A stretch of 64,000 nt of DNA from Anaerolineae bacterium (GCA_049975525.1 JBNGCW010000006.1:68702-132701), one strand, 5' to 3'. Positions 3,847 through 20,603 are shown, counted from the first letter of the stretch. Notes: generated from the letters alone by a model not told the origin. A program made the numbers and translations.

Positions 3847-4049
3847 GAGCGATGTTTATTGCCGGCAGGTTGGAGGGTGCGTGATGTTGCTATTATTTTC
3901 CGTTGCTGTATTTTCCATGGCAGAGAATGTCAGTGGTGGCAAGGGGCTGTGGGGGCCGGGGGCTGTGGAGGGCCGGACCTGCAGCAGAACTCAACATCGA
4001 GGTTATCCCCTCCCCTGCGGTGTCGATTTATCTAGGCAAGGGAGGTATC

Positions 4050-4883: not shown

Positions 4884-4982
4884 GTGTCACCTTCCCGGAG
4901 GAGAGCCAACCTTCTTCCAAAGTGATAGGTGGCCGGTTTTCCCAGAAGGTTGGCTTTTAAGTTGCGAGTGCAAAGAGGTGTT

Positions 4983-5537
4983 ATGAGCGAGAATAACAGG
5001 CCGTTGGCGATTGTGTTCGGCAGTTCGCGGACGAAAGACAACGGGCATCTGAACGACGCGGAGTGCTTGGGTCGCTTGTTGGTCGAAGCGGGCTACGATG
5101 TGGGCAGCGGCGGTTACAGCGCTGTGATGGATCGCGTGAGCAAGGGTGCCCACGAGGCCGGAGGGTACGTCGTGGGCTACACGACGGACCAGTTTCCTGA
5201 CGCTGTGCCGTCGCGGTGGCTGACTGAGGAGCGTCGCACGCCCGACGTGCTGCTCCGCATCCGGCGTATGTTGCAGGAAGGCGATGCCTTTATCGCTCTT
5301 TGGGGTGGTATCGGCACGTTGACGGAGGTGGTCGTCACCTGGAGTATGGGGCAGGTACTGGCCGACACCGGTGGGCGCGTCAAGCCGCTGCTGTTGGTGG
5401 GTGCGCACTGGCCCCCGCTGGTCAGGTGTATCGGCGAGCAGACGGAGATCGGCGACGGGGTGCTGGCCTATCCGCAGCTCTGTGCTACGGTGGAAGAGGC
5501 CGTGGTCAGGTTGCGCGACCTTCGAGAAGAGGAGTAG
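4983..5537 (+). CDS. LOG family protein (TIGR00730 Rossmann-fold nucleotide-binding, cytokinin riboside 5'-monophosphate phosphoribohydrolase-like)
   Basis: MSENNRPLAIVFGSSR...GSGGYSAVMDRVSKGAHEAGGYVVGY...ALWGGIGTLTEV matches the LOG signature (PGGxGTxxE-like). The start is chosen at the internal ATG 4983. Confidence 0.75.
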   Translation: MSENNRPLAIVFGSSRTKDNGHLNDAECLGRLLVEAGYDVGSGGYSAVMDRVSKGAHEAGGYVVGYTTDQFPDAVPSRWLTEERRTPDVLLRIRRMLQEGDAFIALWGGIGTLTEVVVTWSMGQVLADTGGRVKPLLLVGAHWPPLVRCIGEQTEIGDGVLAYPQLCATVEEAVVRLRDLREEE

Positions 5538-5541
5538 CGCC

Positions 5542-6867
5542 ATGCCCAATGCGACGTATCACTTTCCGCCGGATTTCAAATGGGGCGTGGCGACGGCCTC
5601 GCATCAGGTCGAAGGGAACAACGAGAACAATCAATGGTGGGCCTGGGAGCAGCAGGAGGGGCGTATCAAGCAGGGACACACTTCGGGCCTGGCCTGCGAC
5701 TGGTGGGAGAACGCCGAGGCGGATTTTGATCGCGCCGCCGATATGGGTCTGAACGCGCTGCGGCTTTCTATCGAGTGGAGTCGGGTGGAGCCGGAGCCGG
5801 GGGCCTTCGACAACGCGGCGTTGGAGCGTTACCGTGAGATGCTCCAGGGGCTGCGAGCGCGTGGCATCGAGCCTATGGTGACGCTACATCATTTTTCCAA
5901 TCCGCTCTGGCTGGAGCAGCAGGGTGGTTGGGAGAACGTGGGCACCATCGCTTATTTCACCCGTTACGTGGAGCGAGTGGTGCGCGCGCTGAGCGAGGAG
6001 ACGCGGCTCTGGTGCACCGTCAACGAGCCCAATGTCTACGCCACCATGGGCTATCTCACAGGGCTCTTCCCGCCCGGCCAGCGAAGCCTCAAGGCCACGC
6101 GGACGGTGCTCCGTAACCTGCTCAGGGCGCACGGCGCAGCCTATCGCGCCATCCATCGCATCCAGCCGGCGGCGAAGGTGGGGCTGGCGCACAACCTGCG
6201 CATTTTCGACCCCGCCAATCCCCGCTCGCTCCTGGATGGGCTGGTGGCGCGCATTCAGGACCTGGGGTACAACCGGAGCACGCTCAGCGCGGTGTGGAAA
6301 GGGTGGTGGGCGCTGCCCATCGGCTTTGGACCGGCCTTCAAGTTGCGCCGCACGTTGGATTGGATCGGCTTAAATTACTACACGCGCGACCTGGTCGCTT
6401 TTGACAGCGGCGCCCATGAGATGCTCTTCGGGCGCGCCACGCACGCCGGCGACGCCGAGATGTTGGACGGCGGCTACGGCGAGCTCTATCCCGAAGGTAT
6501 GGCCCGCGCGCTGAGGCGCCTGGGAAAGCTGGGCCTCCCCATCTACGTCACCGAGAACGGCATTCCCGACAGCGACGACGACCAGCGTCCCCGCGCACTG
6601 CTGCTCCATCTGCATCAGATGTGGCGCGTCATGCAAGAGAATCTACCGCTGCAGGGTTACTATCACTGGACGCTGGTGGACAACTTCGAGTGGGCGGAGG
6701 GCTGGACGCTGCGCTTCGGCCTGATTGCCCTGGATCCGGAGACGCAGGAGCGCATGCGGCGGCCCAGCGCCGACCTCTACGCTGCGATTGCGCGGGGAGG
6801 CGCCATCACGCCGGAGCTGATCGACACTTACGCACCGGAAGCCCGTCCTCTGCTGTTGCCGGAGTGA
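5542..6867 (+). CDS. bglA: GH1 family beta-glucosidase
   Basis: MPNATYHFPPDFKWGVATASHQVEGNN...TVNEPN...ITENGIPD are classic GH1 motifs, including both catalytic Glu contexts (NEP, ENG). RBS GAGGAG sits upstream of the ATG at 5542. Confidence 0.88.
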   Translation: MPNATYHFPPDFKWGVATASHQVEGNNENNQWWAWEQQEGRIKQGHTSGLACDWWENAEADFDRAADMGLNALRLSIEWSRVEPEPGAFDNAALERYREMLQGLRARGIEPMVTLHHFSNPLWLEQQGGWENVGTIAYFTRYVERVVRALSEETRLWCTVNEPNVYATMGYLTGLFPPGQRSLKATRTVLRNLLRAHGAAYRAIHRIQPAAKVGLAHNLRIFDPANPRSLLDGLVARIQDLGYNRSTLSAVWKGWWALPIGFGPAFKLRRTLDWIGLNYYTRDLVAFDSGAHEMLFGRATHAGDAEMLDGGYGELYPEGMARALRRLGKLGLPIYVTENGIPDSDDDQRPRALLLHLHQMWRVMQENLPLQGYYHWTLVDNFEWAEGWTLRFGLIALDPETQERMRRPSADLYAAIARGGAITPELIDTYAPEARPLLLPE

Positions 6868-6873
6868 CGCCAG

Positions 6874-7935
6874 ATGAAGACATCGGCCCTTGACTACGAC
6901 CTGCCTGAAGAGCTGATCGCGCAGGTGGGCGTGGAGCCGCGCGACGCCTCGCGCCTGCTGGTTATCTACCGCGAGACGGGCGAACTGGAGCACCGTATCT
7001 TCCGCGAGATCGGCGACTATCTGCGTCCCGGTGATCTGCTCGTCGCCAACGAGAGCCGCGTGATCCCCGCGCGCCTCTTCGCCCGCAAAGTCCCCACCGG
7101 GGGCAGAGTGGAGATCCTGCTGTTGCGTCGGATTGAGGAGGGACGCTGGCGCGGGCTGATGGGCGGCGCGCGGACGCGTGTCGGCACCCGTGTGCGCCTC
7201 TTCAAGGGGGACGAGCCCACGGAGATCGAAGCCGAGGTAGTCGAAGTGGGCGGGCGCGGCGAGCGCGTGCTGGCCTTCTCCGAGCCGTTGGCGCCGCATC
7301 TGGACGACCTGGGTGCAGTTCCCCTGCCGCCGTACATCCATGAAGAGCTGAAGGATCCGGAGCGCTACCAGACGGTCTACGCGCAGACGCCGGGCAGCGC
7401 CGCCGCGCCGACGGCGGGCCTGCACTTTACACCGGCGTTGATGCTGGAGCTGCGCGAAGCCGGCGTCAAGTTCGCCTTCGTCACGCTCCACGTGGGATTG
7501 GACACCTTCCGCCCTATCGAAGAGGAGACCGTCGAGGGGCATGAGATTCACAGCGAGTGGGCGCGTCTCTCGCCCCACGTCGCCGAGCAGATCAACCAGA
7601 CCAAGGTGAGGGGTGGACGCGTCATCGCCGTGGGGACGACGAGCATGCGTGTGCTGGAGACGGCGGCGCGCAGCGGGCTTTTTCAATCGGAGACGGAGAG
7701 CTGTCCCTGGCGCGCCGTCGCGCCCTACGAGGGCTTCACCGACCTCTATATCACGCCGGGTTTTGAGTTTCGCGTGGTGGACGCGCTGATCACCAACTTC
7801 CACCTGCCCCGCAGTTCACTGCTGGCGTTGGTGATGGCCTTCGCGGGGGTGGATCTCGTCCGCAAAGCCTACGTGACGGCGATAGAAAAACGCTATCGCT
7901 TCTACTCGCTGGGCGACGCCTGTTTGTTCCTCTGA
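6874..7935 (+). CDS. queA: S-adenosylmethionine:tRNA ribosyltransferase-isomerase (queuosine biosynthesis)
   Basis: MKTSALDYDLPEELIAQ...RDASRLLV...VANESRVIPARL...[15 protein letters not shown] is QueA signature sequence throughout. Confidence 0.9.
   Translation: MKTSALDYDLPEELIAQVGVEPRDASRLLVIYRETGELEHRIFREIGDYLRPGDLLVANESRVIPARLFARKVPTGGRVEILLLRRIEEGRWRGLMGGARTRVGTRVRLFKGDEPTEIEAEVVEVGGRGERVLAFSEPLAPHLDDLGAVPLPPYIHEELKDPERYQTVYAQTPGSAAAPTAGLHFTPALMLELREAGVKFAFVTLHVGLDTFRPIEEETVEGHEIHSEWARLSPHVAEQINQTKVRGGRVIAVGTTSMRVLETAARSGLFQSETESCPWRAVAPYEGFTDLYITPGFEFRVVDALITNFHLPRSSLLALVMAFAGVDLVRKAYVTAIEKRYRFYSLGDACLFL
7776..7935 (+). repeat. Direct repeat copy 1 (3' end of queA); it is duplicated at 9695..9854
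   Basis: About 160 bp with about 96% identity to 9695..9854, read directly from the sequence. Confidence 0.85.
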
Positions 7936-7990
7936 GGCGCTTATCCAGTATCCGGCAACCGGATTTCGTCCCTTACTTCTCTCCTATTGC

Positions 7991-8018
7991 TTGACCCCCG
8001 ATCATTGGGGTAAAATAT
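7991..8018 (+). promoter_or_regulatory. Promoter-like element (TTGACC ... TAAAAT) in the AT-rich region upstream of the cassette gene
   Basis: ttgacc at 7991-7996, taaaat at 8011-8016 (short 14-nt spacer; alternative -10 candidates nearby). Strong RBS AGGAG at 8047-8051. Confidence 0.3.
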
Positions 8019-8059: not shown

Positions 8060-9655
8060 ATGCAAGAAAACATATGGATACGGTTTACTGCTGTGGTGCT
8101 TCTACTGGGCATCATGGTGATTGCCTTGTTCATTGCTACGTCTGTATGGAGCCGACCGCTGTCCGCATCCGCGTGGCACGTTGCCCCTCCGCTGAAGGGG
8201 CCGGTGGATCATCGGCCGGCGCCGGTTATCGTTACGCCCCAGGCTCAGCTGCAGTCCGGCGGCTTGAAAGCCATCGCCATCGTAGGTGAGGTCGGAGATG
8301 TCACTCAGCTTTACAAAGACGACATGCAGTACGCGGTAGACGCACTGGAGGATCATGGCGTTACGGTTTATAAGTTTTTCTACGGCGATAGCGCTTTCAC
8401 TTGGAGCGATATTGTCGCAGCAGCCAATGGCGCACATTTTCTCCTCTACATGGGGCACGGCGTTTACTGGGGCGACTCGTGCGTCAATCCAACGGAGGTC
8501 GGTGGTTTCTATCTAGGTAGCGAGTTCGTCTCTCCGGATCAGATCCGCAATGATCTTGGCGGAAAATTAGCCGAGGACAGCGTGGCAATTCTCAGCCACG
8601 CTTGCTTTTCGGCAGGCGATTCAGCCTGCGATCCCGAGGGCACATTGACGCAAGTGGAGGCCGAGCGCCGGGTGCGGATGTACGCTGCGCCCTTTGTGGA
8701 TATCGGCATGGAGGCTTATTACGCCAACAACAACTATTATTCTGCCAGCAATATTGTCAACCAGCTGTTAACGGATCCCAGCCAACGAAAGAGCGTGGGG
8801 GAGATTTTCAAGAGCATCTCCCCCTTCAGCGCCGGCGAGTTCCGCGATCTGACCTATCCCGACAGCGGCTATGATCTGTGGCTGAGTGGGAGCACAGGTC
8901 ACTGGAGCGATGCCTTTGTCGGTATGCCCGGCTATGTCTTCGCCGGTGATCTTACGACGCCCCCAGAATTGGGTGGGTTGCCGGAGACGTTGGCTTTTGC
9001 GTTCAATCAAGCCACCAGCGTTCTTTCACCCGACTCTTACACTGTGACCCCCGAAAACGTCGGCAATAGCGATCCCCTCACCTGGACCATCACTACCGGC
9101 TGTGCCTGGCTCGACTTTTCGCCGGAAACGGCGACGACACCGGAACCGTTTGGGGTGATGCCCAATCAGGCTGCGATTGCGGCATTGCCCGAAGGCCAGC
9201 ACACCGGCACGTTCACCGTGACAGTCACCGACCCGGCGGAGACGCTCAACGCCGTCCAGCGGGTCGAGGTGACGCTGGATATCGTGAGGCCACGGCTGGG
9301 AAACCTTCCGGCGGAGCTCAATTTCACCTATCTTATTTCTGACGCGCTGATGCTGCCGCGCTCCCACGTCGTGACACCGCGCAACGTCGGCTCGGAAGAT
9401 GTGTTGACGTGGGATCTTGAGCAGGCGGGCACCTGGTTCGAGACGTCGGTCACCAGCGGCACGACGCCCGGCGTCTTCACCATCACGCCCATCAGCTACT
9501 CCACGACCCAGTCGATGAGCTATACGGGCTGTGTTACCGTGACGGCGACGGCGCCGATAGGGACGGACGACGCCGTCCAGCGCATCGATCTCACCCTGCA
9601 GGTCCGGGTGGCCGAAGCGGCGCGTGTATTCTTGCCCCTGGTGACCCGAAACTGA
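8060..9655 (+). CDS. Membrane-anchored secreted protein with a putative clan-CD (legumain/gingipain/caspase-like) cysteine peptidase domain and two tandem C-terminal beta-sandwich-like repeats
   Basis: N-terminal TM ([24 protein letters not shown]). KAIAIVGE strand, then FLLYMGHG (His) and, 49 aa later, [14 protein letters not shown] (Cys). The spacing and context match the clan CD His-Cys dyad. Two repeats follow ([17 protein letters not shown]... and [17 protein letters not shown]...). The region is AT-richer than its surroundings. Confidence 0.5.
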
Positions 9656-9887: not shown

Positions 9888-10238
9888 TCACAGGAAGGCC
9901 GAAAGCAGCAAGAAGGCCGCTTCGACGCCCAATGTTTCCGCGAACAGTTTCCAGGACGCGGGCTCCCCGACGTGGCCGTAATGGTACTCTCCCCCACCGA
10001 TGACCACCGCTACGGCGATCAGGCCCAGGAAGAGGGTCAGGAGCTGGCGTATGGCGACGCCCATCTGATAGACTTCGCCGTAGAAGCCATAACTGCCCCA
10101 GAAAGCGGCGTAGATTTTGAGGACGATGTCCAGCACGGTGGGAATGAGCACAACGGCCAACGCCGAGGTCAGTCCCCAGAGGACGAGCGCGCCGACCATG
10201 TTCAGCGGTTCTGCTTGTGCGTTGTGGGTCTCGGTCAT
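9888..10238 (-). CDS. Small 3-TM membrane protein with the conserved GGGEYHYGHVGE motif; paralog of the anti-sigma C-terminal domain
   Basis: 116 aa and hydrophobic. The C-terminal half aligns with residues about 150-254 of the 12410..13174 anti-sigma protein (IGGGE[YH]HY[GR]HVGE..SW[KR]LF..TL..E..L.LS..L). Confidence 0.65.
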   Translation of the reverse strand: MTETHNAQAEPLNMVGALVLWGLTSALAVVLIPTVLDIVLKIYAAFWGSYGFYGEVYQMGVAIRQLLTLFLGLIAVAVVIGGGEYHYGHVGEPASWKLFAETLGVEAAFLLLSAFL

Positions 10239-10257
10239 CTCGGATACCTTTCTCTAA

Positions 10258-12363
10258 TCAGGGCGTGTCATCTGCCGGGTTGCACTGCAGCGGCAGCCAC
10301 GTGGGCACGCCCCTGATCTCGCTGCCGATGAGGCCCAGGTACGGTGTAGGCACCAGCAGGCCGGTCTTTTGCAGATCGTAGGGCAGCGGCGTGTCGCGTT
10401 CGTCGGCGCGGTTGACCAGGGCGGCGGGGAAGGTGCCGTCGGCGCGTGCCGGGGTGATGGCGAAGTGCACGTGTACCCAGAGCGGCCCTTGCCACCAACG
10501 TCCTTGATAGCCCAGCAGCTCGCCTGCTTCCACGGGCACGTTCTCGACGCCCGGCGGGAAGGCCTCGGCGACGAAGGACTGCCGGTTGGCGCTATCGGCC
10601 ATCCCGCCGTAGAAGGTCCACACCTTTTTTCCGGGGTGCAGCGGGTCGTTGTGCTGGATGGCGACGGCGTCATTCCACGTTTCGCGCCGGGTGAGCAGGC
10701 CGTCGGCCACAGCGTAGACGGGCACGCTGTTCTGATGGCCGAGCCCCATGAAGCCCAGGGCTTTGTTGTACCACCACATGCCCAGCTGGCTTGCCGACGG
10801 CAGACGCCAGGGCGCGTCGGGACAGCGGTTGCCTTCCGGCGGCGGGTTCTCCAGGGTGCTGCGCGGCTGGAAGACCAGGGTGTTGGCTTTGAAAGAGGTG
10901 GGCGCATAGGCCGTCACGAGGGCGTTGAGCATCTCCGGCGTCCAGCGCTCCAGATAGACCGGATAGCCCATGAAGTGATGGAGGAAGATGTAGGGGAAGG
11001 CGCCGGCGCGGATCTCCTCGACCAGCGGACGCTGATCCCAGAGCCCGGCCTGCGCCAATTGTGTCATCTCGAAGGGTTGGAGGTAGAGCGGGCGTCCCTC
11101 GAGCGTCAGCAGCCCGGCGTATTCGTCCGCCAGGATGGGGCCCTCGGCGTGATCGATGAGCCAGGTGAGGTCTTTGTAGTTCGCCAGGGGGCCGACGCGC
11201 TGTTTGAGGTCCTCGATGGGGTTTTGCAGCGTCTCACGGATCAGCATCCCGGCCTGCACGGCCAACACCAGCAGGATCGCAGCGTGGAGGTAGGCCCGCC
11301 AGCCGTTTTTGCTTGCCCGTCGTACACCGTCGGCGTGCCCCCGGTTGCCGATGTCGCTCCAGGCGATGAGGCTGCCGGCGGCCAGGCTGAGCGCGGCGGA
11401 GAGCTCCAGCAGGTAGTTGACGTTGGAGCCGATTTTGCCGACGGTGGCCGCGGAGAGCGTCGCGCCGAGGAGATAGGGCGTCAGTAGGGGCCAAAGTTGG
11501 ATCTGACCGGGGAGCAGGAAAAGGAATGCTCCCGCGCCGATGAGCAGCACGGGGGCCAGACTGCTCAGCTCTCGGGCGTAGCGGATCACGGTCTCCCATT
11601 GGAAGGGGTTGACGTTGGCGGTGACGATATTGAAGAAGAAACCGCCGTCGGTGAGCAGTTGCAAGATCAGGAAGAGCAGGAGGCCCGCTCCGGCGACGAG
11701 GCTTGCCAGTTTAAACGCCACGCGCCGTCCGCACCGATGCCACAGCCAGACGAAGGCCGCCAGCGGCGCGGCGAGACCGTAGGATTGGCGGGTGTAGATC
11801 GCACCCAGCAGCAGGAGGGCGGGGATAAGCACGGCGTTGTGTTCCTCGTCAAGACGCGAGACGGCGTAGAGCGCAGCGACGCTCAGCGCCAGTGCCAGCA
11901 TATCGACCCGCGCCAGCGCCGACCAGCCGACGACGTAGCGGAGAGCCAAGAAGAATCCGGCGGCGACCAGCGCAGCTGTGCGGTTTTGTGTCTGCACGTG
12001 CAGGATGAGACCCAGCAGCCCTGCCGTCGCCATGGTGCAGAGCACGGAGATCAAGCGTCCCGGTAGAAATGAAGGGCCGAAGAGGCCTACGAAAGGCGTC
12101 ATCAGCAGCGGGTAGAGCGGGGGGTAGTTGGAGATGGTGTAGGGGGGCTTGGAGAGATCGCGCCGGTAGATGTTTTCCCCCTGTGCCAGCCGCTGCGCCT
12201 GATCGACCAGCGGCGCTTCACCGTAGTCCAGAGGGTAGCGGTGCGCCAGCGCGATGACGCTGTGCGTAAGGAAGATCAGCGCCGCCAGTGCCAGCAAGAC
12301 GAACAGCGTGAGCCGCAAGCCGTGTTCTACGTAGGGTCCCAGATGGGAGAAGAATCGCTTCAT
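10258..12363 (-). CDS. Fusion protein: N-terminal GT-C/GT39-like (ArnT/PMT-type) membrane glycosyltransferase domain plus a C-terminal M23/LytM-like peptidase domain
   Basis: About 13 TM helices in the first 400 aa with GT39-like loops. The C-terminus reads ...SVPVYAVADGLL...AVAIQHNDPLHPGKKVWTFYGGMA...GELLGYQGRWWQGPLWVHVHFAI, resembling the M23 core (G.PV.A...G.V / V.I.H / GPHLHFE). The HxxxD Zn motif is not clear, so the domain may be degenerate. Confidence 0.6.
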   Translation of the reverse strand: MKRFFSHLGPYVEHGLRLTLFVLLALAALIFLTHSVIALAHRYPLDYGEAPLVDQAQRLAQGENIYRRDLSKPPYTISNYPPLYPLLMTPFVGLFGPSFLPGRLISVLCTMATAGLLGLILHVQTQNRTAALVAAGFFLALRYVVGWSALARVDMLALALSVAALYAVSRLDEEHNAVLIPALLLLGAIYTRQSYGLAAPLAAFVWLWHRCGRRVAFKLASLVAGAGLLLFLILQLLTDGGFFFNIVTANVNPFQWETVIRYARELSSLAPVLLIGAGAFLFLLPGQIQLWPLLTPYLLGATLSAATVGKIGSNVNYLLELSAALSLAAGSLIAWSDIGNRGHADGVRRASKNGWRAYLHAAILLVLAVQAGMLIRETLQNPIEDLKQRVGPLANYKDLTWLIDHAEGPILADEYAGLLTLEGRPLYLQPFEMTQLAQAGLWDQRPLVEEIRAGAFPYIFLHHFMGYPVYLERWTPEMLNALVTAYAPTSFKANTLVFQPRSTLENPPPEGNRCPDAPWRLPSASQLGMWWYNKALGFMGLGHQNSVPVYAVADGLLTRRETWNDAVAIQHNDPLHPGKKVWTFYGGMADSANRQSFVAEAFPPGVENVPVEAGELLGYQGRWWQGPLWVHVHFAITPARADGTFPAALVNRADERDTPLPYDLQKTGLLVPTPYLGLIGSEIRGVPTWLPLQCNPADDTP

Positions 12364-12409
12364 CGCGTGCTCCTTGTTTTCTGCGGGATTTCCGTTGCTG
12401 CCTTTGCCT

Positions 12410-13174
12410 TCACAGGAACAATGCCAGGCTCAAGATCAACAGCTCGCCGACGAGGGTCCAGCCGAAGAGGCGCCACGAACGACGTTCCCCAACGTGTCGA
12501 TAGTGGTGTTCCCCTCCACCGATGACCAGGGTGATCCAGCCCAGGGACAGGAAGAAGACGCCCCAGTTGCCCAGCGCGACGGCCGGCCAGGGATCTTGCC
12601 AGAGGCGCGCGTAGACGCGGAAGAAGAGCTCCCGCAGCAAGTAGATTTCGTAAAGGGCCACCACGGCAGTGCCCAGCCAGAGCGTCACGGCCAACGCCGT
12701 GGTGAGTGTGCGGCGCGGTTGCAGCAGGCGGGGATGTTGCCCCCAGCTCATCACCGGGACGAGGAAGAGGATGCAGGCCAGGGTGGGGAACGCCATCGTC
12801 CGCCCCGGCTTGGCGGCGATGAAAGCGGGCTCGACCTGCTGCACGAGGCCTAACAGCGCCGCCAGCAGCCCGATGAGGGCCGCGCCCACGGGCAGAAAGT
12901 CCACGACACGGCGGCGGTGCAGCTGCCGTTGGGGCGCGCGTCCCATGCGTGTCCGGACCGCGGCGAAGGTCATCTCTGCCGGCGGTTTGACGTCGTCAAG
13001 CGCGGTGCGCAGTTCGCGCCGCAGCCGCCGTTGGGTCTCCTCGTGGACGGTCAGCGCGGTACGGCAGGCGGGACAGGCGACCAGGTGTCGGTCCATGTGC
13101 TCCCGTTCCGCATCGGTCAGCGTCTGATGCACGTATCCGATCAGCTCATCTTGGGTGAGGTGTTGCTTCATCGC
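12410..13174 (-). CDS. Anti-sigma factor (zf-HC2 type) with a C-terminal tri-TM GGGEHHYRHVGE domain
   Basis: The start is at MKQHLTQDELIGYVHQTLTDAEREHMDRHLVACPACRTAL (H-x3-C-x2-C zinc finger), overlapping the sigma factor stop as ATGA. A TM segment and a membrane domain paralogous to 9888..10238 follow. Confidence 0.75.
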   Translation of the reverse strand, partial: AMKQHLTQDELIGYVHQTLTDAEREHMDRHLVACPACRTALTVHEETQRRLRRELRTALDDVKPPAEMTFAAVRTRMGRAPQRQLHRRRVVDFLPVGAALIGLLAALLGLVQQVEPAFIAAKPGRTMAFPTLACILFLVPVMSWGQHPRLLQPRRTLTTALAVTLWLGTAVVALYEIYLLRELFFRVYARLWQDPWPAVALGNWGVFFLSLGWITLVIGGGEHHYRHVGERRSWRLFGWTLVGELLILSLALFL

Positions 13175-13752
13175 AGTTCCTCTTCTTTCATCTGATGATA
13201 CAGGGCCGTCGGCGCGAGGCGTGTGCGCAGCTGCTTGTAGGCCAGTCGCACCCGCGACTGAGCGGTCCGCACCGGGCAATTCATGATGTCGGCGATTTCG
13301 CGGTAGGTGTGCCCGGCCCAGTAGCGCAGCACTACCGCCTCGCGCAGTGGTGGACTCAGGGCTTGAAGCGCGTCCCAGACTTCGCGGCGCGTCTCTTGCG
13401 CGAGGGCGCGGTGCTCCGGCCCGGGGCGGCCGGCGCGGGGCTCGTGGCCTCGATCCAGCCAGCGGGTCAACGAGATGACAGGCGCACGCCGTCGGCGATG
13501 GCGATCGCGGCTACGACTCACGGTGATGGTGTGCAGCCACGTCGAGAAGGTAGCGCGCGTGGGGTCGAAGCGGTGGATGTTGGTCAGCGCGTAGGTCAGC
13601 GCGTCCTGCGTCGCTTCCTCTGCATCCTCGGCGTTGCCCAGCAGGCTATAGGCCAGGCGGTAAGTCGAAGCGCGGAATCGCTCGTAAAGCGCCTTCGCGG
13701 CCCGCTCGTCGCCTGTCTGCCAACGTTCAATCCACCGCTCGATCTCGGTCAT
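13168..13752 (-). CDS. ECF-type RNA polymerase sigma-70 family factor
   Basis: Regions 2 and 4 are recognisable (ATQDALTYALTNIHRFDP...FSTWLHTI; LREAVVLRYWAGHTYREIADIMNCPVRTAQSRVRLAYKQLR). It is translationally coupled to the downstream anti-sigma gene. Confidence 0.85.
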   Translation of the reverse strand: MTEIERWIERWQTGDERAAKALYERFRASTYRLAYSLLGNAEDAEEATQDALTYALTNIHRFDPTRATFSTWLHTITVSRSRDRHRRRRAPVISLTRWLDRGHEPRAGRPGPEHRALAQETRREVWDALQALSPPLREAVVLRYWAGHTYREIADIMNCPVRTAQSRVRLAYKQLRTRLAPTALYHQMKEEELR

Positions 13753-14039: not shown

Positions 14040-15779
14040 TCAGGCTTCGGCTTTCCGCAGATACCACACGCCGCCCACGACGCCTAACCCCAACAGAGTC
14101 GCGCCCAGCAATGACCCCACCAGAAGTTTGCGGCGGCGTGGACGGGCTTCGGCGCGCCGGGCTTGTGCTTTGACCAACGCGGCTTTCCAATCGGGGATGG
14201 ACGCCTTGGGCGGCAGGCTGTAGCAGCGGTCCCAGAGTTTGAGATACGCGGCAACTTCGCCTTCCCAGCGCGCCTCGTCCCAGCCCAGTTCCGGCTGACA
14301 GAGGGCGCGGACTCTGGGCAGGATCTCCCGTCCCCCGTGGGGGAGCAGCAGGCCGAGGCGCGTGCGGCGCAGCAGCAGATCGTCCAGGTGTTCGACGGCT
14401 TCGCTGCGCGCGGCCCAGCGCAGCTCCGCCCAGAGCGTCTCGGTGCCGGGGATCTCGACGAGCTCGCCGGATTGCGCCGCCTCCGTCAGCGCCGGGGCCG
14501 CCGCGCCGTAGCGCCCCAGCAGACGACGCCGCCGGTCAGGCGTCAGCGCCTCGCCCTGGGGCAGCGGTACGTCCACCGGATCCAGCATCGGTACGTCGTC
14601 CTGCGGCTCAGGCATCGCCGACAACCGGTGCCGCACGGCGCACAGCGCGTCCAGGGCGATACGGCGGAAGGTCGTCAGCTTGCCGCCGGTCACCGTCAGC
14701 AGCCCCTGCTCGTCCCAGACGACGTGGTCGCGTGACTCCTTCGACGGATCAGCCTTGCCGGAGCCGATGACGGGCCGCACGCCGGCGAAGGTGCTGATCA
14801 CGTCGTCCGGCGTCAGGCCGAGGGAGGGGAACTGGGCCTCCACCGCCGCCATGAGATAGGCGACCTCGTCCGGCGTGATCTGCGGTTCCGCGTTCAAGGG
14901 CCGGTCATGGTCGAGGTCGGTGGTGCCCACCAGCGTCACGCCTTCCCAGGGGAAGAGGAAGACGGGCCGCCGGTCGAGGGGATGCAGAAAGCTGATGGCC
15001 TGCGCCAGCGGCAGCCGCCACGCCGGGAAGATCAGGTGGCTGCCCCGCAGCGGACGGATGCGCGGGCGCGCCCCGATCTGCCGGCGCAAGTCGTCGGCCC
15101 AGGCGCCCGTGGCGTTGATGACGACGGAAGCGTACACGTCGGCCCGGCGGTCCCTCACTCGGTCGTGCAGGCGCACGCCGACGACCTGTCCGTCGTCGCA
15201 GAGTACCTGTTCGGCGCGACAGTAGTTCAGCGCGGTCGCCCCGTCGGCGATGGCCTCGAAGATCACGCGCAATACCAGCCGCGCGTCGTCGGTCTGCGCG
15301 TCGCCGTAGCGCCAGCCGCCCACCAGCCCGTTCTTGACGATGTGGGGCGCCAACATCTGGAAATCCTCGGCGCTGTAGTAGCGGTGGCCCCACTGCAGCG
15401 CCAGCAGATCGTAGACCGTCAGCCCGGCGCCGTAGATCCATTTGCCGGGGACATCGCCTTTGTAGGTCGCCAGCAGGAAGCCCAGCGGGTCGATGAGACC
15501 GGGCCCCTCTTCGATCAGCCGCTTGCGCTCCTGCACGGAGGTCAGCGTCAGGTGTACCTTGCCCTCCTTGAGGTAGCGCAAGCCGCCGTGGACCAACTTC
15601 GACGAGCGGCTGGACGTCCCCCAGGCGAAGTCCTGCTGCTCGACGAGCAGCGCCTTCAAGCCCAGGCGCGTCGCCTCCCGCAGAATCCCCGCCCCGGTGA
15701 TCCCGCCCCCGACGACGACAATGTCCCACGCTTGATCCAAACGATCCCAGGCCTCAGCGCGCCAATTTTCCATTAACAT
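14040..15779 (-). CDS. glpD: FAD-dependent glycerol-3-phosphate dehydrogenase (GlpD/GlpA-like) with a C-terminal TM tail
   Basis: DIVVVGGGITGAG dinucleotide-binding motif and GlpD-like sequence throughout. The start is chosen at MLMENW (ATG 15779). The C-terminus LLVGSLLGATLLGLGVVGGVWYL is hydrophobic. Confidence 0.75.
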   Translation of the reverse strand: MLMENWRAEAWDRLDQAWDIVVVGGGITGAGILREATRLGLKALLVEQQDFAWGTSSRSSKLVHGGLRYLKEGKVHLTLTSVQERKRLIEEGPGLIDPLGFLLATYKGDVPGKWIYGAGLTVYDLLALQWGHRYYSAEDFQMLAPHIVKNGLVGGWRYGDAQTDDARLVLRVIFEAIADGATALNYCRAEQVLCDDGQVVGVRLHDRVRDRRADVYASVVINATGAWADDLRRQIGARPRIRPLRGSHLIFPAWRLPLAQAISFLHPLDRRPVFLFPWEGVTLVGTTDLDHDRPLNAEPQITPDEVAYLMAAVEAQFPSLGLTPDDVISTFAGVRPVIGSGKADPSKESRDHVVWDEQGLLTVTGGKLTTFRRIALDALCAVRHRLSAMPEPQDDVPMLDPVDVPLPQGEALTPDRRRRLLGRYGAAAPALTEAAQSGELVEIPGTETLWAELRWAARSEAVEHLDDLLLRRTRLGLLLPHGGREILPRVRALCQPELGWDEARWEGEVAAYLKLWDRCYSLPPKASIPDWKAALVKAQARRAEARPRRRKLLVGSLLGATLLGLGVVGGVWYLRKAEA

Positions 15780-15824
15780 GTCTATCCCGCCTCCGTATTC
15801 ATCACACAACACGCAATACGTTGA

Positions 15825-15853
15825 CTCTACTGAAAAAAGGTTTTTCAGTAGAG
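15825..15853. promoter_or_regulatory. Palindrome CTCTACTGAAAAA-N3-TTTTTCAGTAGAG (candidate operator/terminator hairpin) in the glpD-like upstream region
   Basis: Perfect 13-bp arms read from the sequence. The left arm is part of TTGACTCTACTGAAAAAA, which recurs at 17631-17649. Confidence 0.5.
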
Positions 15854-15865
15854 AAAGGGATACTT

Positions 15866-15901
15866 TATGTTGTGGTTGGGCTGCAGCCCAACCACAACAT
15901 A
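15866..15901. other. 36-nt perfect palindrome TATGTTGTGGTTGGGCTGCAGCCCAACCACAACATA between the FAD-oxidase and glpD-like genes
   Basis: Read directly from the sequence. It lies 60 nt downstream of the stop of the 15960..17549 gene (minus strand), and a T-rich run follows on both strands. It is a possible terminator or attenuator. Confidence 0.5.
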
Positions 15902-15959
15902 TACCCCATATTTTTCTTTGGCTGCCTCTTTTTTCAGGGCAGCCAATACGTTTCACGAG

Positions 15960-17549
15960 TCAGATCAGTTTTCCGGGATTCATAAGTTTTTCAGGGTCGA
16001 AAGTCTCCATGGCGACGTGGAGCGTTTTTACACCCAGCGTGCCTTTCTCCGCCGCCAGATAGGGCTTGTGATCGATCCCCACGCCGTGCTGATGGCTGAT
16101 GGTCGCGCCGTGTTCGACGATAACTTCGCTGGCGGCCCGCTTCATGGCCGACCAGCGGTGCAGGGTTTCCTCCGGTGTCGCCGTCAATCGGAAGACATAC
16201 TGCACGTAGACGCTGGCGCCGTAGGGGTAGAGGTGAGACATGTGGGTGAAGACGTGCACGCGCTCGCCGCCGGGCATGGCCTCACGGATGGCGCGCTCGA
16301 CGGCGGGGATCAGCGCGGCGACGTCGGCCCAATCCGTCGCCGTCTCCAGCGTGTCGATGCCGTAGCCCGCGTCCCAGAGCGCGTTGCGCAGGTAGGGCGA
16401 CGTGAAACGGTGCTTGTGCCACGTTTTGCCGAAGGTCTGGGTGCCGTAGACGCCGTGGTGCGCTCTGGCGATGCGCAGTGCCTCCCGGCGACCCAGGTCC
16501 ACGAGGCGCTCGCGTCCCGTCGCGCCGAAGAGCAGCATGCACTTGCCCGCGCCGACGCCGCGCAGGCGCAGGTAGGCCGAAAGACCGCCCAGCAACAGGG
16601 CGTGCCCCGCCATAGCCAGCGTCGTCTCCGTCTCCGCTGCGGTGCTCAGTCGCACCATGGAGAGAGGGAGGCGCGCCTGCAGCATCTCGCGGACGGCGGC
16701 GCGCCCGTGGTCGAAATCGGGGAAGAAGACGGCGTGGAACTCCTCCTGCTCCGGCAGCGGCGAGACCCGCACCGTCGCCTCGGTGATGATGCCCAACCGT
16801 CCCTCGGAGCCCAGTACCAGTTCGCGCAGGTCCGGCCCCGCCGCCGACGCGGGCAGGTTGGCCGGCAGCTCCAGGGTTCCCGCCGGGGCGACCAGACGCC
16901 CGCCGGCGAAGAGCTGCTCGATGCGCCCGTAGCCCAGCGACTGCTGCCCGCTGCTGCGCGTGGCGATCCAGCCGCCGAGGGTTGAGTATTCGAAGGACTG
17001 CGGGTAATGTCCCAACGTCCGCCCGTGGGCGCGCAATTGCGCCTCCAGATCCGGGCCGCGTGCACCCGCGCCGAAGGTCGCCAGGTTGCTCACCTCGTCC
17101 AGCGCGCAGAGACCGGAGAGCCGCGCCATATCCACGGTGAGTACCGGACGGTCGCCCGGCAGTGGGTTGATATGGCCGACGACGCTGGTCCCACCGCCGT
17201 AGGGGATCAGCCGCGCGCCGGTCTCCGCAGCGTAGTCGAGCAGGGCACGCACGTCGTCTTCACTCTCCGGGAAGGCGACGCCATCGGGGAAGGGGCCCGC
17301 GTTGCCGCTGCGCAGCGCCACCCAATCGGGGAAGCTTTGACCCCGCGCGTGCCGCAGGCGCGTCTCGGCGTCCGTGCAGATCAGCGGGTGGGCCGCCAGT
17401 CGCGATGCCGGTACCGTGGCGATGACATCCGTCAGCGCCGCGTCCTCCGGCGGGTGTCCGGGCCCCAGGAGCGCTTCAAGGAACCGGCGCGCCGAGTCCG
17501 GCAGCGGATAGTCAAAGGTATCGTCGCCCCAGCCGTTCCAACGTCGCAT
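15960..17549 (-). CDS. FAD-linked oxidase (alkyldihydroxyacetonephosphate synthase / GlcD-like FAD-binding oxidoreductase)
   Basis: 529 aa with an FAD_binding_4-like N-terminal half (RLIPYGGGTSVVG) and an AGPS/GlcD-like C-terminal half (ATISHQHGVG, FDPEKLMNPGKL). Confidence 0.7.
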   Translation of the reverse strand: MRRWNGWGDDTFDYPLPDSARRFLEALLGPGHPPEDAALTDVIATVPASRLAAHPLICTDAETRLRHARGQSFPDWVALRSGNAGPFPDGVAFPESEDDVRALLDYAAETGARLIPYGGGTSVVGHINPLPGDRPVLTVDMARLSGLCALDEVSNLATFGAGARGPDLEAQLRAHGRTLGHYPQSFEYSTLGGWIATRSSGQQSLGYGRIEQLFAGGRLVAPAGTLELPANLPASAAGPDLRELVLGSEGRLGIITEATVRVSPLPEQEEFHAVFFPDFDHGRAAVREMLQARLPLSMVRLSTAAETETTLAMAGHALLLGGLSAYLRLRGVGAGKCMLLFGATGRERLVDLGRREALRIARAHHGVYGTQTFGKTWHKHRFTSPYLRNALWDAGYGIDTLETATDWADVAALIPAVERAIREAMPGGERVHVFTHMSHLYPYGASVYVQYVFRLTATPEETLHRWSAMKRAASEVIVEHGATISHQHGVGIDHKPYLAAEKGTLGVKTLHVAMETFDPEKLMNPGKLI

Positions 17550-17630
17550 GATGCATCTCCTTCAAGAAACAGTCAGTTAGTCTTTTCGTCAGATCGTCGC
17601 ATAGTCAATGGATTGAGCGGAGTACAAGGA

Positions 17631-17760
17631 TTGACTCTACTGAAAAAAAGTCCAAAAAATCGGATTTTTAGCAAGACATCCCCTATATCTAGTGGTTTTG
17701 ACCGCGAATTTTCGCACATGTAGTGGCGAGTTCCGGAAAAATCCGATTTTTTCAGTGGAG
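17631..17760. promoter_or_regulatory. Intergenic region with the TTGACTCTACTGAAAAAAA motif and long imperfect inverted repeats (17637-17670 / 17735-17760); candidate operator for the FAD-oxidase/glpD operon
   Basis: aaaaaatcggattttt (17655-17670) is the exact reverse complement of aaaaatccgatttttt (17738-17753). ctactgaaaaaaa (17637-17649) pairs with tttttcagtggag (17748-17760). Confidence 0.45.
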
Positions 17761-17770
17761 TAAAGGGGTT

Positions 17771-18523
17771 TCAGTCTTCGTCTTCAGTTGTGTTCTCTGT
17801 GTCCAATCGTTCCCATAGCTCGATGCTTTTCTGCATTACTTCGCGCGTAATCCGCTCCGCGGCGTCGGCGTCCCCCCGCTCGGCCGCTTCCAGCAGCGCC
17901 GCGTAGAACGCCGCCGACGTCGCCCGCGCTTTTTCCGTGGCGAAGTAGCGCCGTGCCATCTTCTCGTAGAAGCCCGCGAACCCGTTGAGGATCAGGGGGT
18001 AGATGGGATTGCCCGACGCCAGAGTCAGTGTATGGTGCAGTGTCCAGTCGAAGGCAGCGTAGGCCGCCGGCGTCGCGGCCAGATCTGGATGTCCGCTCAG
18101 CCGGGAGATGACGGCCTGAGGATCGTGGGCGACCGCCGCGTGGGTGTAGGCCGGCGCCATGGCGAGACGCACCTCCAGCAGATCCCGCACAAAGGTCGCG
18201 GGCAGGCCCAGGTCATAGCGCACCAGCGTATCGAGGACGTTGAGCCCACCTTCGCGCCAGAAGTCATTGACCACGGTGGATTTGCCATGTTGGATGGTGA
18301 GCCAACCGTCGCGCTCCAGGCGCTGCAGCGCCTCGCGCAGGGTGGGGCGGGTGATGCCCAGCTGCTCGGCCAGCCGGCGCTCGCCGGGCAACGTCGAGCC
18401 GGGGGGATAGGTACCGTCGACGAAGGCGATGACCAGCGTTTCTTCCGCGTACTCGGCGGGTCGTTGAGGTGGCATAGGTCTCCTCTCTACTGGTAAGTGG
18501 TCTGACCAGTTGTATTGTACCAT
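17771..18523 (-). CDS. GntR family (FadR-like C-terminal domain) transcriptional regulator
   Basis: The N-terminal wHTH (LPGERRLAEQLGITRPTLREALQRLERDGWLTIQHGKSTVV) is followed by an all-helical FCD-like domain. Confidence 0.8.
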   Translation of the reverse strand: MVQYNWSDHLPVERRPMPPQRPAEYAEETLVIAFVDGTYPPGSTLPGERRLAEQLGITRPTLREALQRLERDGWLTIQHGKSTVVNDFWREGGLNVLDTLVRYDLGLPATFVRDLLEVRLAMAPAYTHAAVAHDPQAVISRLSGHPDLAATPAAYAAFDWTLHHTLTLASGNPIYPLILNGFAGFYEKMARRYFATEKARATSAAFYAALLEAAERGDADAAERITREVMQKSIELWERLDTENTTEDED

Positions 18524-18540
18524 AGGAAAGGGGGGAAGGC

Positions 18541-18580
18541 AAGGGGGTAAAAAGAGACGAGCACCTGCCGGTGCTCGTCT
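18541..18580 (-). terminator. Rho-independent terminator closing the NTPase/GNAT/radical-SAM transcription unit
   Basis: Perfect 10-bp stem GACGAGCACC/GGTGCTCGTC with loop TGCC (18556-18579). On the minus strand it is followed by TCTTTTTACCCCC. Confidence 0.6.
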
Positions 18581-18606
18581 GAGAGTATAAGAGCGTGATG
18601 GCTACG

Positions 18607-20133
18607 TCAGTGGCACCACCTCAGAAGACGCAGTCCCTCCAGGCGCAGGAGCGCAGGGAAGAGCGCGCGGTAAATGGCACAATAGGGGGAGGGGCCGGGC
18701 CTGGCCTGGACTGAGCGTGCCAGGAGTGGGCAGCCACCGGCACACCAGTAGCGCCAGGGGCACGTGTGGCATTGCAGCTTATCGTCCACGGGGACGTTTT
18801 GGAAGTTGGCATCAGCCGCCCGGATGGCATCGAGGGGGTCGTCGTTCTTGACGGTGCTCACGGTGTCATCCATGCGCATCTGGCAGCGGGACACGTTGCC
18901 CTGGGGGCCAATGACCAGGTAGCTGCGTCCGGCACCGCAGGGGTAGGCGTGGGGGCTGCTGAACAGGCTGCGATCCAGCAACCCATCGATAAAGCGCTCT
19001 CTGGGTAGATTTGCTTCGATGGTAGAGAGGGCGTTTTGCAACCCTGCGATCCAGCGCTGTTGGGCGTGGGGCTCTGCCAGGCGTGATATGCGCTCAGGAT
19101 CGCGCACAAAGTTGAGATTGAAGCGCAGATCGCGTTCCAGCGCAAAGGCGACTACCTCGCCGAGGTGATCGATGTTATGCTCGGTCACGGTGATGGAGAG
19201 ATAGGGAGCGAGGCCACGGTCTAACGCCCGATCGATAGTGCCGGCGACCTGTGCAAAGGAGCCCCGTCCATCGCTGAAAGGGCGTTGGGCATCGTGCGGC
19301 GCACCGACGCCGTCCAGCGAGATCATCAAGCGCACGTTTTGGTCCTGCAGCCAGGCGATCATGGCGTCGGTGAGACGGGTGCCGTTGGAGAGGAGGGTGG
19401 CGTGCAGTCCCAGACCACGGTGGTCCGTCAACGTCCGCGCATAAGCGTGCAGCGTGCTCACCAGGGGCCAGCGCAGTGTCGGCTCCCCGCCGGCGTACTT
19501 GAGTTTGACAGCCCGGAAGCCGTGCGCCTCGGCGGATCGAACGACGGCCTTGATGGCAGCGCGACCGGTGGCGACGTCCATCTCGCGTCCACGCTTGCGG
19601 ACGTAACAGTAGGGACAGCGGAGATTGCAGGCGTCGGTCACGTGCAGCCAGACGGTGAGGAGTTGCGGAGGCGCGTGCAAATGCTCGCCGGGTCCGCAGT
19701 CTGAGCTCAGCAGGCCCAGGGCGGCGAATTGCTCATCGGTTTCCGTCTTCAGGGGTCGGGGCTCCGTAAAGTGCGCGAACCGCTGCTGCGCGGCTGCGTT
19801 GAGCACCGCCACGGTGGCAGCGCCCTGGGTGTTGAAGAGTAGCGTATGGCCCTCCGGGAGCGGCGCTCGGTAGAGTGATGGGGGGATCTGCCAGAGAGCG
19901 TTGGTGCACGAGGGGGGTAGGCCCAGGGCAATCACCTCTGGGGCGCAGGCGCAGTCAGAGGCGGCTGTAGAATCCTTTAGCCAAATTCCACAGAACGATA
20001 GCGTCTCTGGGTACGCGCAGTCAGATTCGTTGTTCTCACCCAGGAGAGACCAAAAGAGCCGGGGGCGTTGCTTATTAAGCAAGGGTTTGTTCCCCCAATC
20101 GTAAACTACAAATCGTGTATCATCACCATCCAC
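18607..20133 (-). CDS. Radical SAM/SPASM-domain enzyme with an N-terminal roughly 150-aa extension containing a PqqD/RRE-like segment; a putative peptide-modifying maturase
   Basis: CNLRCPYCYV (CxxxCxxC), and C-terminal Cys clusters (CQMRM...CHTCPWRYWCAGGCP...YCAIY) typical of SPASM. The N-terminal HTLLFNTQGAATVAVLNAAAQQRF resembles the RRE/PqqD strand-helix. The start codon is uncertain, and the 5' end overlaps the GNAT gene by 28 nt. Confidence 0.75.
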   Translation of the reverse strand: MDGDDTRFVVYDWGNKPLLNKQRPRLFWSLLGENNESDCAYPETLSFCGIWLKDSTAASDCACAPEVIALGLPPSCTNALWQIPPSLYRAPLPEGHTLLFNTQGAATVAVLNAAAQQRFAHFTEPRPLKTETDEQFAALGLLSSDCGPGEHLHAPPQLLTVWLHVTDACNLRCPYCYVRKRGREMDVATGRAAIKAVVRSAEAHGFRAVKLKYAGGEPTLRWPLVSTLHAYARTLTDHRGLGLHATLLSNGTRLTDAMIAWLQDQNVRLMISLDGVGAPHDAQRPFSDGRGSFAQVAGTIDRALDRGLAPYLSITVTEHNIDHLGEVVAFALERDLRFNLNFVRDPERISRLAEPHAQQRWIAGLQNALSTIEANLPRERFIDGLLDRSLFSSPHAYPCGAGRSYLVIGPQGNVSRCQMRMDDTVSTVKNDDPLDAIRAADANFQNVPVDDKLQCHTCPWRYWCAGGCPLLARSVQARPGPSPYCAIYRALFPALLRLEGLRLLRWCH

Positions 20134-20585
20134 ATCGTATCACAAATCTCAAACTTAGTAAAGCTGTACTTCTTGAAGACATGAATGGCGCGCCGGTTGT
20201 CACGACGCGTTGTCAGTTTCAAGCGAGATAAACCACGGTGCTCAGCCCACGTCATGGCGTGTTGGATCAGGCAGGTGCCGAGCCCCTGATTTCGGTATGG
20301 GGGCAGCAACCCAAGCCCCAGTTCCGCTTCCTTTGGGGCATCCGTGGGAAAAACGCGGCACCAACCGATGGGACGTCCCTCTACCCTGGGCACCATCAAC
20401 AGATGGTCAGGACACTCCGGGTGGGAGAGCGCATGCGCCCACCTGGGGGTTGCTTTGAAACGAGCGGTGTGCATCCACTTACGCTCTCCGCAGACTGTAT
20501 CAATCACGGTGATAAGAAGATCTTGATCCTCAAGTCGATATCGAGAAACGATGAAGGTGTTGTAGCGCTCGAAGATGATATTCAC
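20106..20585 (-). CDS. GNAT family N-acetyltransferase
   Basis: The acetyl-CoA binding motif region is present (RNQGLGTCLIQHAMTWAEHRGLSRLKL...NRRAIHVFKKYSF). The start is apparently GTG. Confidence 0.8.
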   Translation of the reverse strand: MNIIFERYNTFIVSRYRLEDQDLLITVIDTVCGERKWMHTARFKATPRWAHALSHPECPDHLLMVPRVEGRPIGWCRVFPTDAPKEAELGLGLLPPYRNQGLGTCLIQHAMTWAEHRGLSRLKLTTRRDNRRAIHVFKKYSFTKFEICDTMWMVMIHDL

Positions 20586-20603
20586 GCCGAATAACTTCTT
20601 ATT

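Follow-up and report, generated by a model that had tools for sequence, protein, structure and literature searches.

A three-helix membrane module occurs both fused to a ZAS anti-sigma factor and as a free protein in a conserved extracytoplasmic function sigma cassette of Chloroflexota

Results

A sigma factor operon that uses one membrane module twice

We analysed a 64,000-nucleotide stretch of DNA from an Anaerolineae bacterium (GCA_049975525.1 JBNGCW010000006.1:68702-132701; hereafter the window, with positions counted from its first letter). Its minus strand carries an operon of four tightly packed genes encoding, in this order, a sigma factor of the extracytoplasmic function (ECF) type, an anti-sigma factor of the ZAS group, a GT-C glycosyltransferase and a membrane protein of 116 amino acids (aa) (Table 1). 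What is new here is a membrane module without a described family that is used both fused, as the C-terminal part of the anti-sigma factor, and free, as the 116-aa protein, in one ECF operon. A preliminary description of the locus had given the same gene order and coordinates and had proposed the homology between the two membrane parts, and our analysis bears out both points. The anti-sigma ATG overlaps the sigma TGA (ATGA, within CGATGAAG), 46 nucleotides (nt) separate the anti-sigma and glycosyltransferase genes, and the 116-aa gene, served by a GAAAGG ribosome-binding site, lies 19 nt past the glycosyltransferase stop; a purine-rich ribosome-binding site precedes each of the four genes. Identical proteins from an "Anaerolineae bacterium" metagenome-assembled genome (MAG) are present in NCBI under the names hypothetical protein, anti-sigma factor family protein and glycosyltransferase family 39 protein. 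Past the 116-aa gene we found no canonical intrinsic terminator, and a scan for sigma-70 promoters gave none.

Table 1. Features of the cassette, in window coordinates
Feature	Position	Strand	Basis or remark
Candidate ECF-type promoter motif, TGATCA-N16-CGTATAA	13785..13813	(-)	ends 33 nt upstream of sigma ATG
ECF (group IV) sigma factor, 194 aa	13168..13752	(-)	Pfam Sigma70_r2 and Sigma70_r4_2, NCBIfam TIGR02937
ZAS anti-sigma factor, 253 aa	12410..13171	(-)	ATGA start overlap, zf-HC2
Cytoplasmic ZAS anti-sigma domain, aa 1-88, H29-x3-C33-x2-C36	12908..13171	(-)	zf-HC2 match, invariant residues
Anti-sigma transmembrane hairpin TM1-TM2, aa 92-144	12740..12898	(-)	hydropathy segments 92-110 and 126-144
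Fused three-helix module, aa 147-253, motif IGGGEHHYRHVGERRSWRLF	12413..12733	(-)	BLASTP, hhalign, profile search
GT-C glycosyltransferase (ArnT/PMT-like by model), 701 aa, with extracytoplasmic C-terminal region	10258..12363	(-)	PMT_2, AlphaFold2 and Foldseek
Beta-rich C-terminal domain of glycosyltransferase, aa ~514-640, at best a degenerate LytM/M23-like fold	10444..10824	(-)	weak Foldseek match
Free three-helix module, 116 aa	9888..10238	(-)	orthologue clusters, AlphaFold2 model, GAAAGG ribosome-binding site
Conserved motif of free copy, predicted cytoplasmic face, aa 80-99, IGGGEYHYGHVGEPASWKLF	9942..10001	(-)	family-wide conservation, predicted topology

Both the sigma factor and the ZAS domain belong to known families and are unremarkable within them. 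The former matched Sigma70_r2 (E=7.5e-17, 61.3 bits against a cut-off of 24) and Sigma70_r4_2 (E=2.9e-15, 56.1 bits, cut-off 25.7), and it carries only the sigma-2 and sigma-4 domains, which places it among the ECF (group IV) factors; the NCBIfam model of the ECF superfamily, TIGR02937, scored 98.6 bits against a cut-off of 42.9. No named NCBIfam equivalog or subfamily (SigW, SigM, RpoE and others) could be assigned, the models scoring 58-96 bits against cut-offs of 126-303, with SigW models among the better matches, far below their cut-offs. In the anti-sigma factor, zf-HC2 (PF13490) was matched with E=2.3e-5 (24.8 bits, cut-off 22.2) and the zinc motif H29-x3-C33-x2-C36 is intact, as in other ZAS proteins. 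D20, R23, E24, H29 and C33 were invariant among 23 anti-sigma homologues. Beyond this domain and the two hydropathy segments, an Arg-rich loop between the second and third transmembrane (TM) helices (HPRLLQPRR) leads into the module. The anti-sigma factor as a whole has five TM helices, almost no extracytoplasmic mass and no sizeable external domain. Judged from synteny, it would putatively bind and inhibit the co-encoded sigma factor.

The module is an undescribed membrane domain family

BLASTP aligned the 116-aa protein with the anti-sigma factor at E=4e-13 (37% identity over 87 aa), the homologous part of the latter spanning approximately residues 147-253 (~107 aa), and hhalign comparison of a profile of 14 free proteins with a profile of 23 fused anti-sigma factors gave a probability of 99.9 and E=3.9e-34 over 106 columns. 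An exhaustive HMMER search, with a 13-sequence profile against 1.84 billion representatives, yielded at least 250 clusters (50% identity) at E<=1e-3 and 150 at E<=1e-10, with a best E of 7e-38; the full family became visible through this search, the word-indexed protein search having returned 8 free and 5 fused clusters only. The family has two architectures, free proteins of 100-140 aa and proteins of ~250-265 aa with the module at the C-terminus, nearly all of which carry the ZAS motif at residues 29-36; in the anti-sigma orthologue P0010, for instance, the profile matches span residues 149-253. The preliminary description had named generic low-complexity TM resemblance as the finding that would undo the proposed homology. 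Apart from hydrophobic composition nothing speaks for such a resemblance, or for the small open reading frame (ORF) being no gene at all; the hhalign E-value, the recovery of both architectures by one profile, the polar motifs common to both copies and the eight orthologue clusters of the 116-aa protein, with 54-100% identity and synteny kept, leave this explanation a negligible likelihood.

An AlphaFold2 model of the 116-aa protein, built from a 119-sequence alignment, predicted a three-helix bundle (helices 11-47, 55-88 and 93-115; pLDDT 92.5, pTM 0.81), in line with the tri-TM domain proposed earlier. Foldseek comparison of this model with the PDB returned only non-significant helical-bundle matches (best E=3.5). 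Nor did we find a Pfam family common to the free members (0/119), or one beyond zf-HC2 in the fused members (0/23; zf-HC2 itself was matched in 23/23 of those scanned), and NCBIfam and PDB sequence searches with the module were likewise empty. The module, as anticipated, is an uncharacterised domain and constitutes an undescribed membrane domain family. Two oddities came up in these searches: one of the 119 free members matched Pfam T2SSF at 2.4e-18, and P0137 appeared to be a chimera of an MFS-like N-terminus and a module C-terminus. Both are probably assembly or gene-calling artefacts, and a link of the module to secretion systems was discarded on that ground.

The conserved motif is predicted to face the cytoplasm

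We counted conservation across 162 family members, using the numbering of the 116-aa protein. Conserved positions comprise L20, W21 (149/152), T24 and I32; I80, G81, G82, E84 (148/162), Y85 (132/162), H86 (141/162) and G91 in the motif region; and S95, W96, F99, T102 and E/Q106 (152/161) downstream of it, with basic residues at 88, 94 and 97 flanking E-Y-H. The motif had been described as His-rich, IGGGE[YH]HY[GR]HVGE. E84, Y85 and H86 are indeed kept family-wide, but H89 is found in only half of the members (81/162) and is replaced by R or N in 67/162, leaving a single conserved His; by these counts, the "His-rich" motif is really an E-Y-H ... S-W motif.

The positive-inside count, taken over 119 free members, gave 5.2 K+R per protein for the N-terminus plus loop 2 versus 1.8 for loop 1 plus the C-terminus. 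In the fused copy, a cytoplasmic ZAS domain is followed by two TM segments, which would place the start of the module inside and make the loop that bears the motif, between helices 2 and 3, cytoplasmic. The E-Y-H motif is thus predicted to face the cytoplasm, and it is in the cytoplasmic half of the module that W21, T24, G81, G82, E84, Y85, H86, S95, W96 and E106 cluster. The preliminary description had raised metal or envelope stress as the signal. Given the predicted position, these His residues appear unlikely to sense a metal or envelope ligand on the periplasmic side, and we rejected a periplasmic metal sensor on the predicted topology.

A variant of that idea would have the two copies act independently, each binding at the cytoplasmic face a small ligand such as a metal ion, proton or lipid head-group through E84, Y85, H86 (plus H89) and the intramembrane E106, with the fused copy signalling its occupancy to the ZAS domain and the free copy buffering or handling the ligand. 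E84, Y85, H86 and E/Q106 are kept in every sub-family, also where the copies have no relation to sigma factors, the basic residues surround the motif, and an E/H site would suit the earlier metal idea. However, each chain offers one Glu and one reliably conserved His, so that a metal site would need oligomerisation; H89 varies as described above and E106 is Q in many members; the predicted cytoplasmic orientation would be unusual for an extracytoplasmic-function sensor; and the Foldseek search against the PDB gave no similar fold with a bound ligand. We therefore regard independent ligand binding as unlikely.

Fused and free copies occur together in 16 Chloroflexota cassettes

A pattern scan of one genome per species, covering 185,579 species, gave 23 confirmed loci, all in Chloroflexota (Anaerolineae, Anaerolineales, Ardenticatenaceae or unclassified). 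In all loci we looked for the module, the sigma factor, the ZAS domain and each of the two glycosyltransferase halves. Sixteen complete cassettes with a fused anti-sigma factor, from different Chloroflexota MAGs, were found; the sigma gene lies directly upstream of the fused anti-sigma gene in 16/16, and a free paralogue accompanies the fused one in every case (16/16), which is the pattern that a hetero-oligomer model would predict. The order sigma, anti-sigma, glycosyltransferase, small protein is present in nine of the sixteen (the window, L008, L009, L011-L015 and L033), and the order sigma, anti-sigma, small protein, glycosyltransferase in six (L018-L020, L022-L024), which have a longer glycosyltransferase of 911-955 aa; in L017, the sigma, anti-sigma and small-protein genes are followed by genes for other membrane proteins. 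Two more metagenomic loci, available without their DNA, have genes of 117-121 aa directly downstream. The flanking genes of the cassette vary between loci.

Some cassettes show additional features. A third, degenerate module copy of 139 aa (E~1e-6 to 1e-4), lacking E-Y-H, sits between the anti-sigma and free-paralogue genes in L023 (7533-7952) and L024 (7379-7798), and a 141-aa gene is likewise placed at the metagenomic locus of P0013. L008 has two tandem paralogous GT-C genes (3919-5925 and 5922-7991) where other cassettes have one.

These data bear on the simplest role that could be given to the module, that of a mere anchor or scaffold, in which case the signal would enter elsewhere, for example through the redox or zinc chemistry of the ZAS motif or through regulated proteolysis, and the membrane role of the small protein would be unrelated. 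Some ZAS anti-sigma factors, such as RsrA, do sense through the HxxxCxxC site, which is intact here. Nevertheless, a mere anchor would be expected neither to keep ~12 polar or aromatic residues almost unchanged in at least 250 clusters nor to occur with a free paralogue in 16/16 cassettes, and we consider this role improbable.

Fused and free copies diversified in parallel

We built a neighbour-joining tree from 44 module sequences, in which fused copies and free copies linked to cassettes fell into separate clades, each of them divided into the same two sub-clades (A and B), matching the two gene orders. These parallel sub-clades indicate an old duplication, after which both copies were kept and diversified in parallel. 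The free copy of L016 and the copies linked to ABC transporter genes (see below) resemble the fused type. Residue changes also run in parallel: in clade A, E31 of the fused copy is paired with R64 of the free copy (8/8 and 9/9), and in clade B, N31 with N64/65 (7/7), while position 106 in clade A is E/E in four loci and Q/Q in five. Such changes would fit, weakly, a direct contact between the fused and free copies. Together with the 16/16 co-occurrence and the parallel diversification, they point indirectly to a fused-free partnership.

A conserved candidate promoter precedes the sigma gene

The sequence TGATCA-N16-CGTATAA upstream of the sigma gene is the single match to this motif in the whole 64-kb window, and 100 shuffles gave 0 matches. 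In the form TGA[TG][CT]A-N16-CGTATAA, an exact match lies upstream of the sigma gene in 14 of the 16 cassettes, always with a 16-nt spacer, and L019 has it with one mismatch (TAATCA). Its conservation suggests an autoregulated promoter of the whole operon, and the four-gene switch is probably self-activating.

The glycosyltransferase is a lineage-specific GT-C enzyme

The preliminary description had called the 701-aa protein a GT39-M23 fusion, a label that calls for correction. PMT_2 was its only Pfam match (E=3.8e-8, 34.1 bits, cut-off 26.1), and in Foldseek comparisons its AlphaFold2 model (pLDDT 89.3) matched ArnT 5ezm best (E=8e-8), followed by STT3, Pmt4, AglB, ALG9/12, PglB and AftB, all with probability 1.00. 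The protein is, on this modelled fold, a GT-C enzyme, with the match in its N-terminal half. Following TM1, L45-D46-Y47-G48-E49, which holds the acidic D-x-x-E motif, was invariant in 53 homologues, consistent with an active enzyme and with the acidic catalytic motif that GT-C enzymes carry in their first extracytoplasmic loop. At E<=1e-5 the family comprises 932 clusters; among the best 120, full-length identity is 50-100%, and the organism names given for these 120 are all Anaerolineae, Anaerolineales or Chloroflexota. It is a lineage-specific GT-C enzyme. "GT39" is the label of the annotation pipeline, and the protein falls outside true GT39 (the protein O-mannosyltransferases of CAZy) in that PMT (PF02366) and MIR were not matched at E<=1.

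As for the M23 part, the isolated C-terminal region gave no match to Peptidase_M23 (PF01551) at E<=10, and a profile of the 53 homologues gave no PDB sequence match at E<=1. Foldseek placed the phage M23 domain 6yj1_A at rank 48 for the C-terminal domain, a weak match (E=0.2, probability 0.98, TMt 0.40, 116 columns). The zinc site is mostly absent: the first His of HxxxD is Tyr in 39/53 homologues (mostly Y-E-N-T) and His in 2/53, including the window protein, and the Asp is absent four residues on. Other residues of the region are conserved, H571 and D573 being invariant, and H631-x-H633, in the place of the HxH motif of M23, is partly retained (51/53 and 37/53, respectively). The modelled beta domain is at best a degenerate LytM-like fold, and more likely a binding domain than a peptidase.

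Other genes in the window and beside related cassettes

Convergent with the cassette, 8060-9655 (+) encodes a 531-aa protein with an N-terminal TM or signal segment and no Pfam domain, whose C-terminal tail (...VFLPLVTRN) weakly matched the putative "YLP-box" sorting motif of NCBIfam (E~0.1, near the cut-off). In its place, past the small gene, the closest relatives (L001, L002, L003 and L005) have a convergent GH32 (fructan or sucrose hydrolase) gene. At 321-3815 (+), 6 kb from the cassette, a 1164-aa membrane protein with PTPS_related and YfhO-like matches is another probable GT-C type enzyme. Directly upstream of the sigma gene, 14040-20133 (-) holds a run of lipid and glycerol genes, encoding a GlpD-like FAD dehydrogenase (DAO and DAO_C), an FAD-linked oxidase (FAD_binding_4 and FAD-oxidase_C), a FadR-type GntR regulator and a radical SAM protein; this run is not conserved beside the cassette in other loci. 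The region ~20000-30000, with a G+C content of 0.51-0.58 versus ~0.64 elsewhere in the window, contains STAND-like AAA_16/TPR ATPases (20604-23720 and 23736-24932) and a 407-aa ORF without Pfam match, and may be an acquired island. A very long ORF of 2029 aa lies at 56302-62391 (-).

Discussion

A proposed heteromeric anti-sigma complex

ECF sigma factors and their anti-sigma factors are one of the main signalling systems of bacteria, yet most anti-sigma factors have neither a known sensing domain nor a known signal. The cassette described here is a compact case, with a sensor that has no external domain, a free copy of its module, a single enzymatic output and a recognisable promoter, which makes it tractable for asking how intramembrane signals control anti-sigma factors and bears on the poorly understood regulation of the Chloroflexota envelope. 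It is a conserved cassette, and it leaves the present picture of ECF signalling in place.

Our preferred interpretation, to which we assign a probability of roughly 0.4, is that of a probably autoregulated ECF cassette, seen so far in Chloroflexota alone and mostly in Anaerolineae, in which an intramembrane heteromer of the anti-sigma factor and its free paralogue would regulate envelope glycosylation. The sigma factor would transcribe its own operon from the conserved promoter. Through the three-helix module, the anti-sigma factor would sense inside the membrane or on its cytoplasmic side, and the free paralogue would partner it, in the manner of YhdL-YhdK, to form a heteromeric anti-sigma complex. 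As the paralogue would be expressed from the sigma-dependent operon, feedback would act on the sensor too. Rather than a ligand in the periplasm, the signal would most likely be membrane state or the state of lipid-linked glycosylation; GT-C enzymes of the ArnT/PMT-like class use polyprenyl-phosphate-linked sugars on the outer face of the membrane.

Several observations weigh against this interpretation. The proposed lipid-carrier signal would be drawn by analogy, and the promoter is suggested by its conservation, with one of the 16 cassettes (L009) lacking the motif upstream of the sigma gene. The parallel residue changes come down to only two or three events in evolution, for which common descent or a ligand common to both copies could account. 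Moreover, the module does recur beside ECF sigma factors, in the 16 complete cassettes, but is not specific to them. Free modules occur without sigma or anti-sigma genes in L005, with the glycosyltransferase gene only, and in L016, with the glycosyltransferase and ABC-2 transporter genes; in six further loci (L021, L025-L027, L030 and L031), a free module ends an operon for an Opp/Dpp-type ABC importer. These free copies indicate that the module has a function of its own, independent of the anti-sigma partner. In this sense, these bacteria have the module as a general small membrane protein, and in one lineage it became fused to an anti-sigma domain.

The Opp/Dpp operons encode two permeases and two oligo_HPY ATPases before the module, which lies at ~8000-8330 in L021, L026 and L027, at ~870-1160 in L025, at 5477-5845 in L030 and at 2823-3185 in L031. 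In four of these six loci, a GH13-like enzyme, a cNMP-binding protein and a zinc-ribbon regulator of ~1250 aa come next. In L028 and L029, a free module lies beside a TetR/ABC pair. A module specific to the glycosyltransferase was ruled out by the ABC-operon copies.

This wider distribution could also mean that the free module serves membrane machines, namely GT-C enzymes and ABC importers, as an accessory subunit, and that the fused copy docks at the same site of the glycosyltransferase and reads its occupancy or abundance by competition, that is, by partner switching. The glycosyltransferase and small-protein genes are adjacent or near each other in 22 loci, including the two without nearby sigma and anti-sigma genes, and the module closes the six importer operons, overlapping the ATPase gene by 8 nt in L030. 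On the other hand, the same residues are conserved in glycosyltransferase-linked, ABC-linked and fused copies, which points to an intrinsic function and not to an interface specific to the glycosyltransferase, and L017 has no glycosyltransferase gene within the 1.7 kb of contig downstream of its small gene. We see partner switching as a possible explanation, though a rather unlikely one. The ABC-linked free copies favour an intrinsic function of the module and keep both this explanation and independent ligand binding alive.

Returning to the proposed heteromer, a bolder version of it would make the module a new class of intramembrane signalling and dimerisation domain, acting as a stoichiometry-sensitive "microProtein" co-receptor heteromer that reports polyprenyl-phosphate-linked glycosylation or the occupancy of membrane machines (GT-C enzymes, ABC importers). 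We hold this version to be doubtful. If true, such a co-receptor heteromer would give Chloroflexota a lipid-carrier homeostasis circuit of independent origin, analogous to SigM-YhdLK.

Comparison with known systems

We did not find this architecture or cassette described in the literature on Chloroflexi or Anaerolineae. The module family, with its at least 250 clusters, merits a Pfam entry, and the cassette probably represents an ECF group of its own.

Individual elements of the cassette have known counterparts. The Bacillus sigma-W type promoter has the consensus TGAAAC-N16-CGTATA, and the candidate promoter found here shares its bipartite form, the 16-nt spacer and the CGTATA -10 element, but has TGATCA or TGAGCA as its -35 element; recognition by the cassette sigma factor is putative. 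The glycosyltransferase resembles the ArnT and PMT enzymes (GT83/GT39) in its PMT_2 match, in having ArnT as its best structural match and in the invariant D-x-x-E after TM1, whereas it lacks a PMT or MIR match and has a family-specific C-terminal region including the beta domain, at best degenerate LytM-like. EnvC and NlpD also carry degenerate LytM (M23-like) domains. As in these proteins, the possible M23-like fold of the cassette domain is missing the HxxxD zinc ligands; unlike them, the domain is fused to a GT-C enzyme, and its similarity to M23 domains is weak (E=0.2) and without a Pfam match.

Small membrane proteins that act in feedback on a sensor are known, MgrB acting on PhoQ being one case. 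MgrB, however, is not homologous to its sensor, whereas the small protein of the cassette copies the membrane domain of its presumed partner; in this respect, the free module resembles "microProtein"-type regulation by a truncated paralogue. Like RsrA, ChrR and RslA, the cassette anti-sigma factor has an N-terminal HxxxCxxC domain, and its gene lies directly downstream of the ECF sigma gene, to which it is translationally coupled. It differs from these ZAS factors in its five-TM anchor, which ends in the undescribed three-helix module. The ECF re-classification lists groups whose anti-sigma factors have 1, 2, 6, 4 or 3 predicted TM helices, and five is not among these numbers (PMC7826278).

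The closest likeness in system architecture is that to SigM-YhdL-YhdK of B. subtilis, where YhdL and YhdK form a membrane complex that holds SigM, whose control is presumed to be allosteric and not proteolytic, and which responds to levels of the lipid carrier undecaprenyl phosphate (PMC11081497). In both ECF operons, the sigma and anti-sigma genes are accompanied by one for a small multi-pass membrane protein, and both systems appear tied to envelope glycopolymer pathways that use polyprenyl carriers. The likeness concerns architecture, and there are differences: the Chloroflexota cassette has a small protein that is paralogous to the membrane domain of the anti-sigma factor, an anti-sigma factor with five TM helices, and a gene for a GT-C enzyme within the operon.

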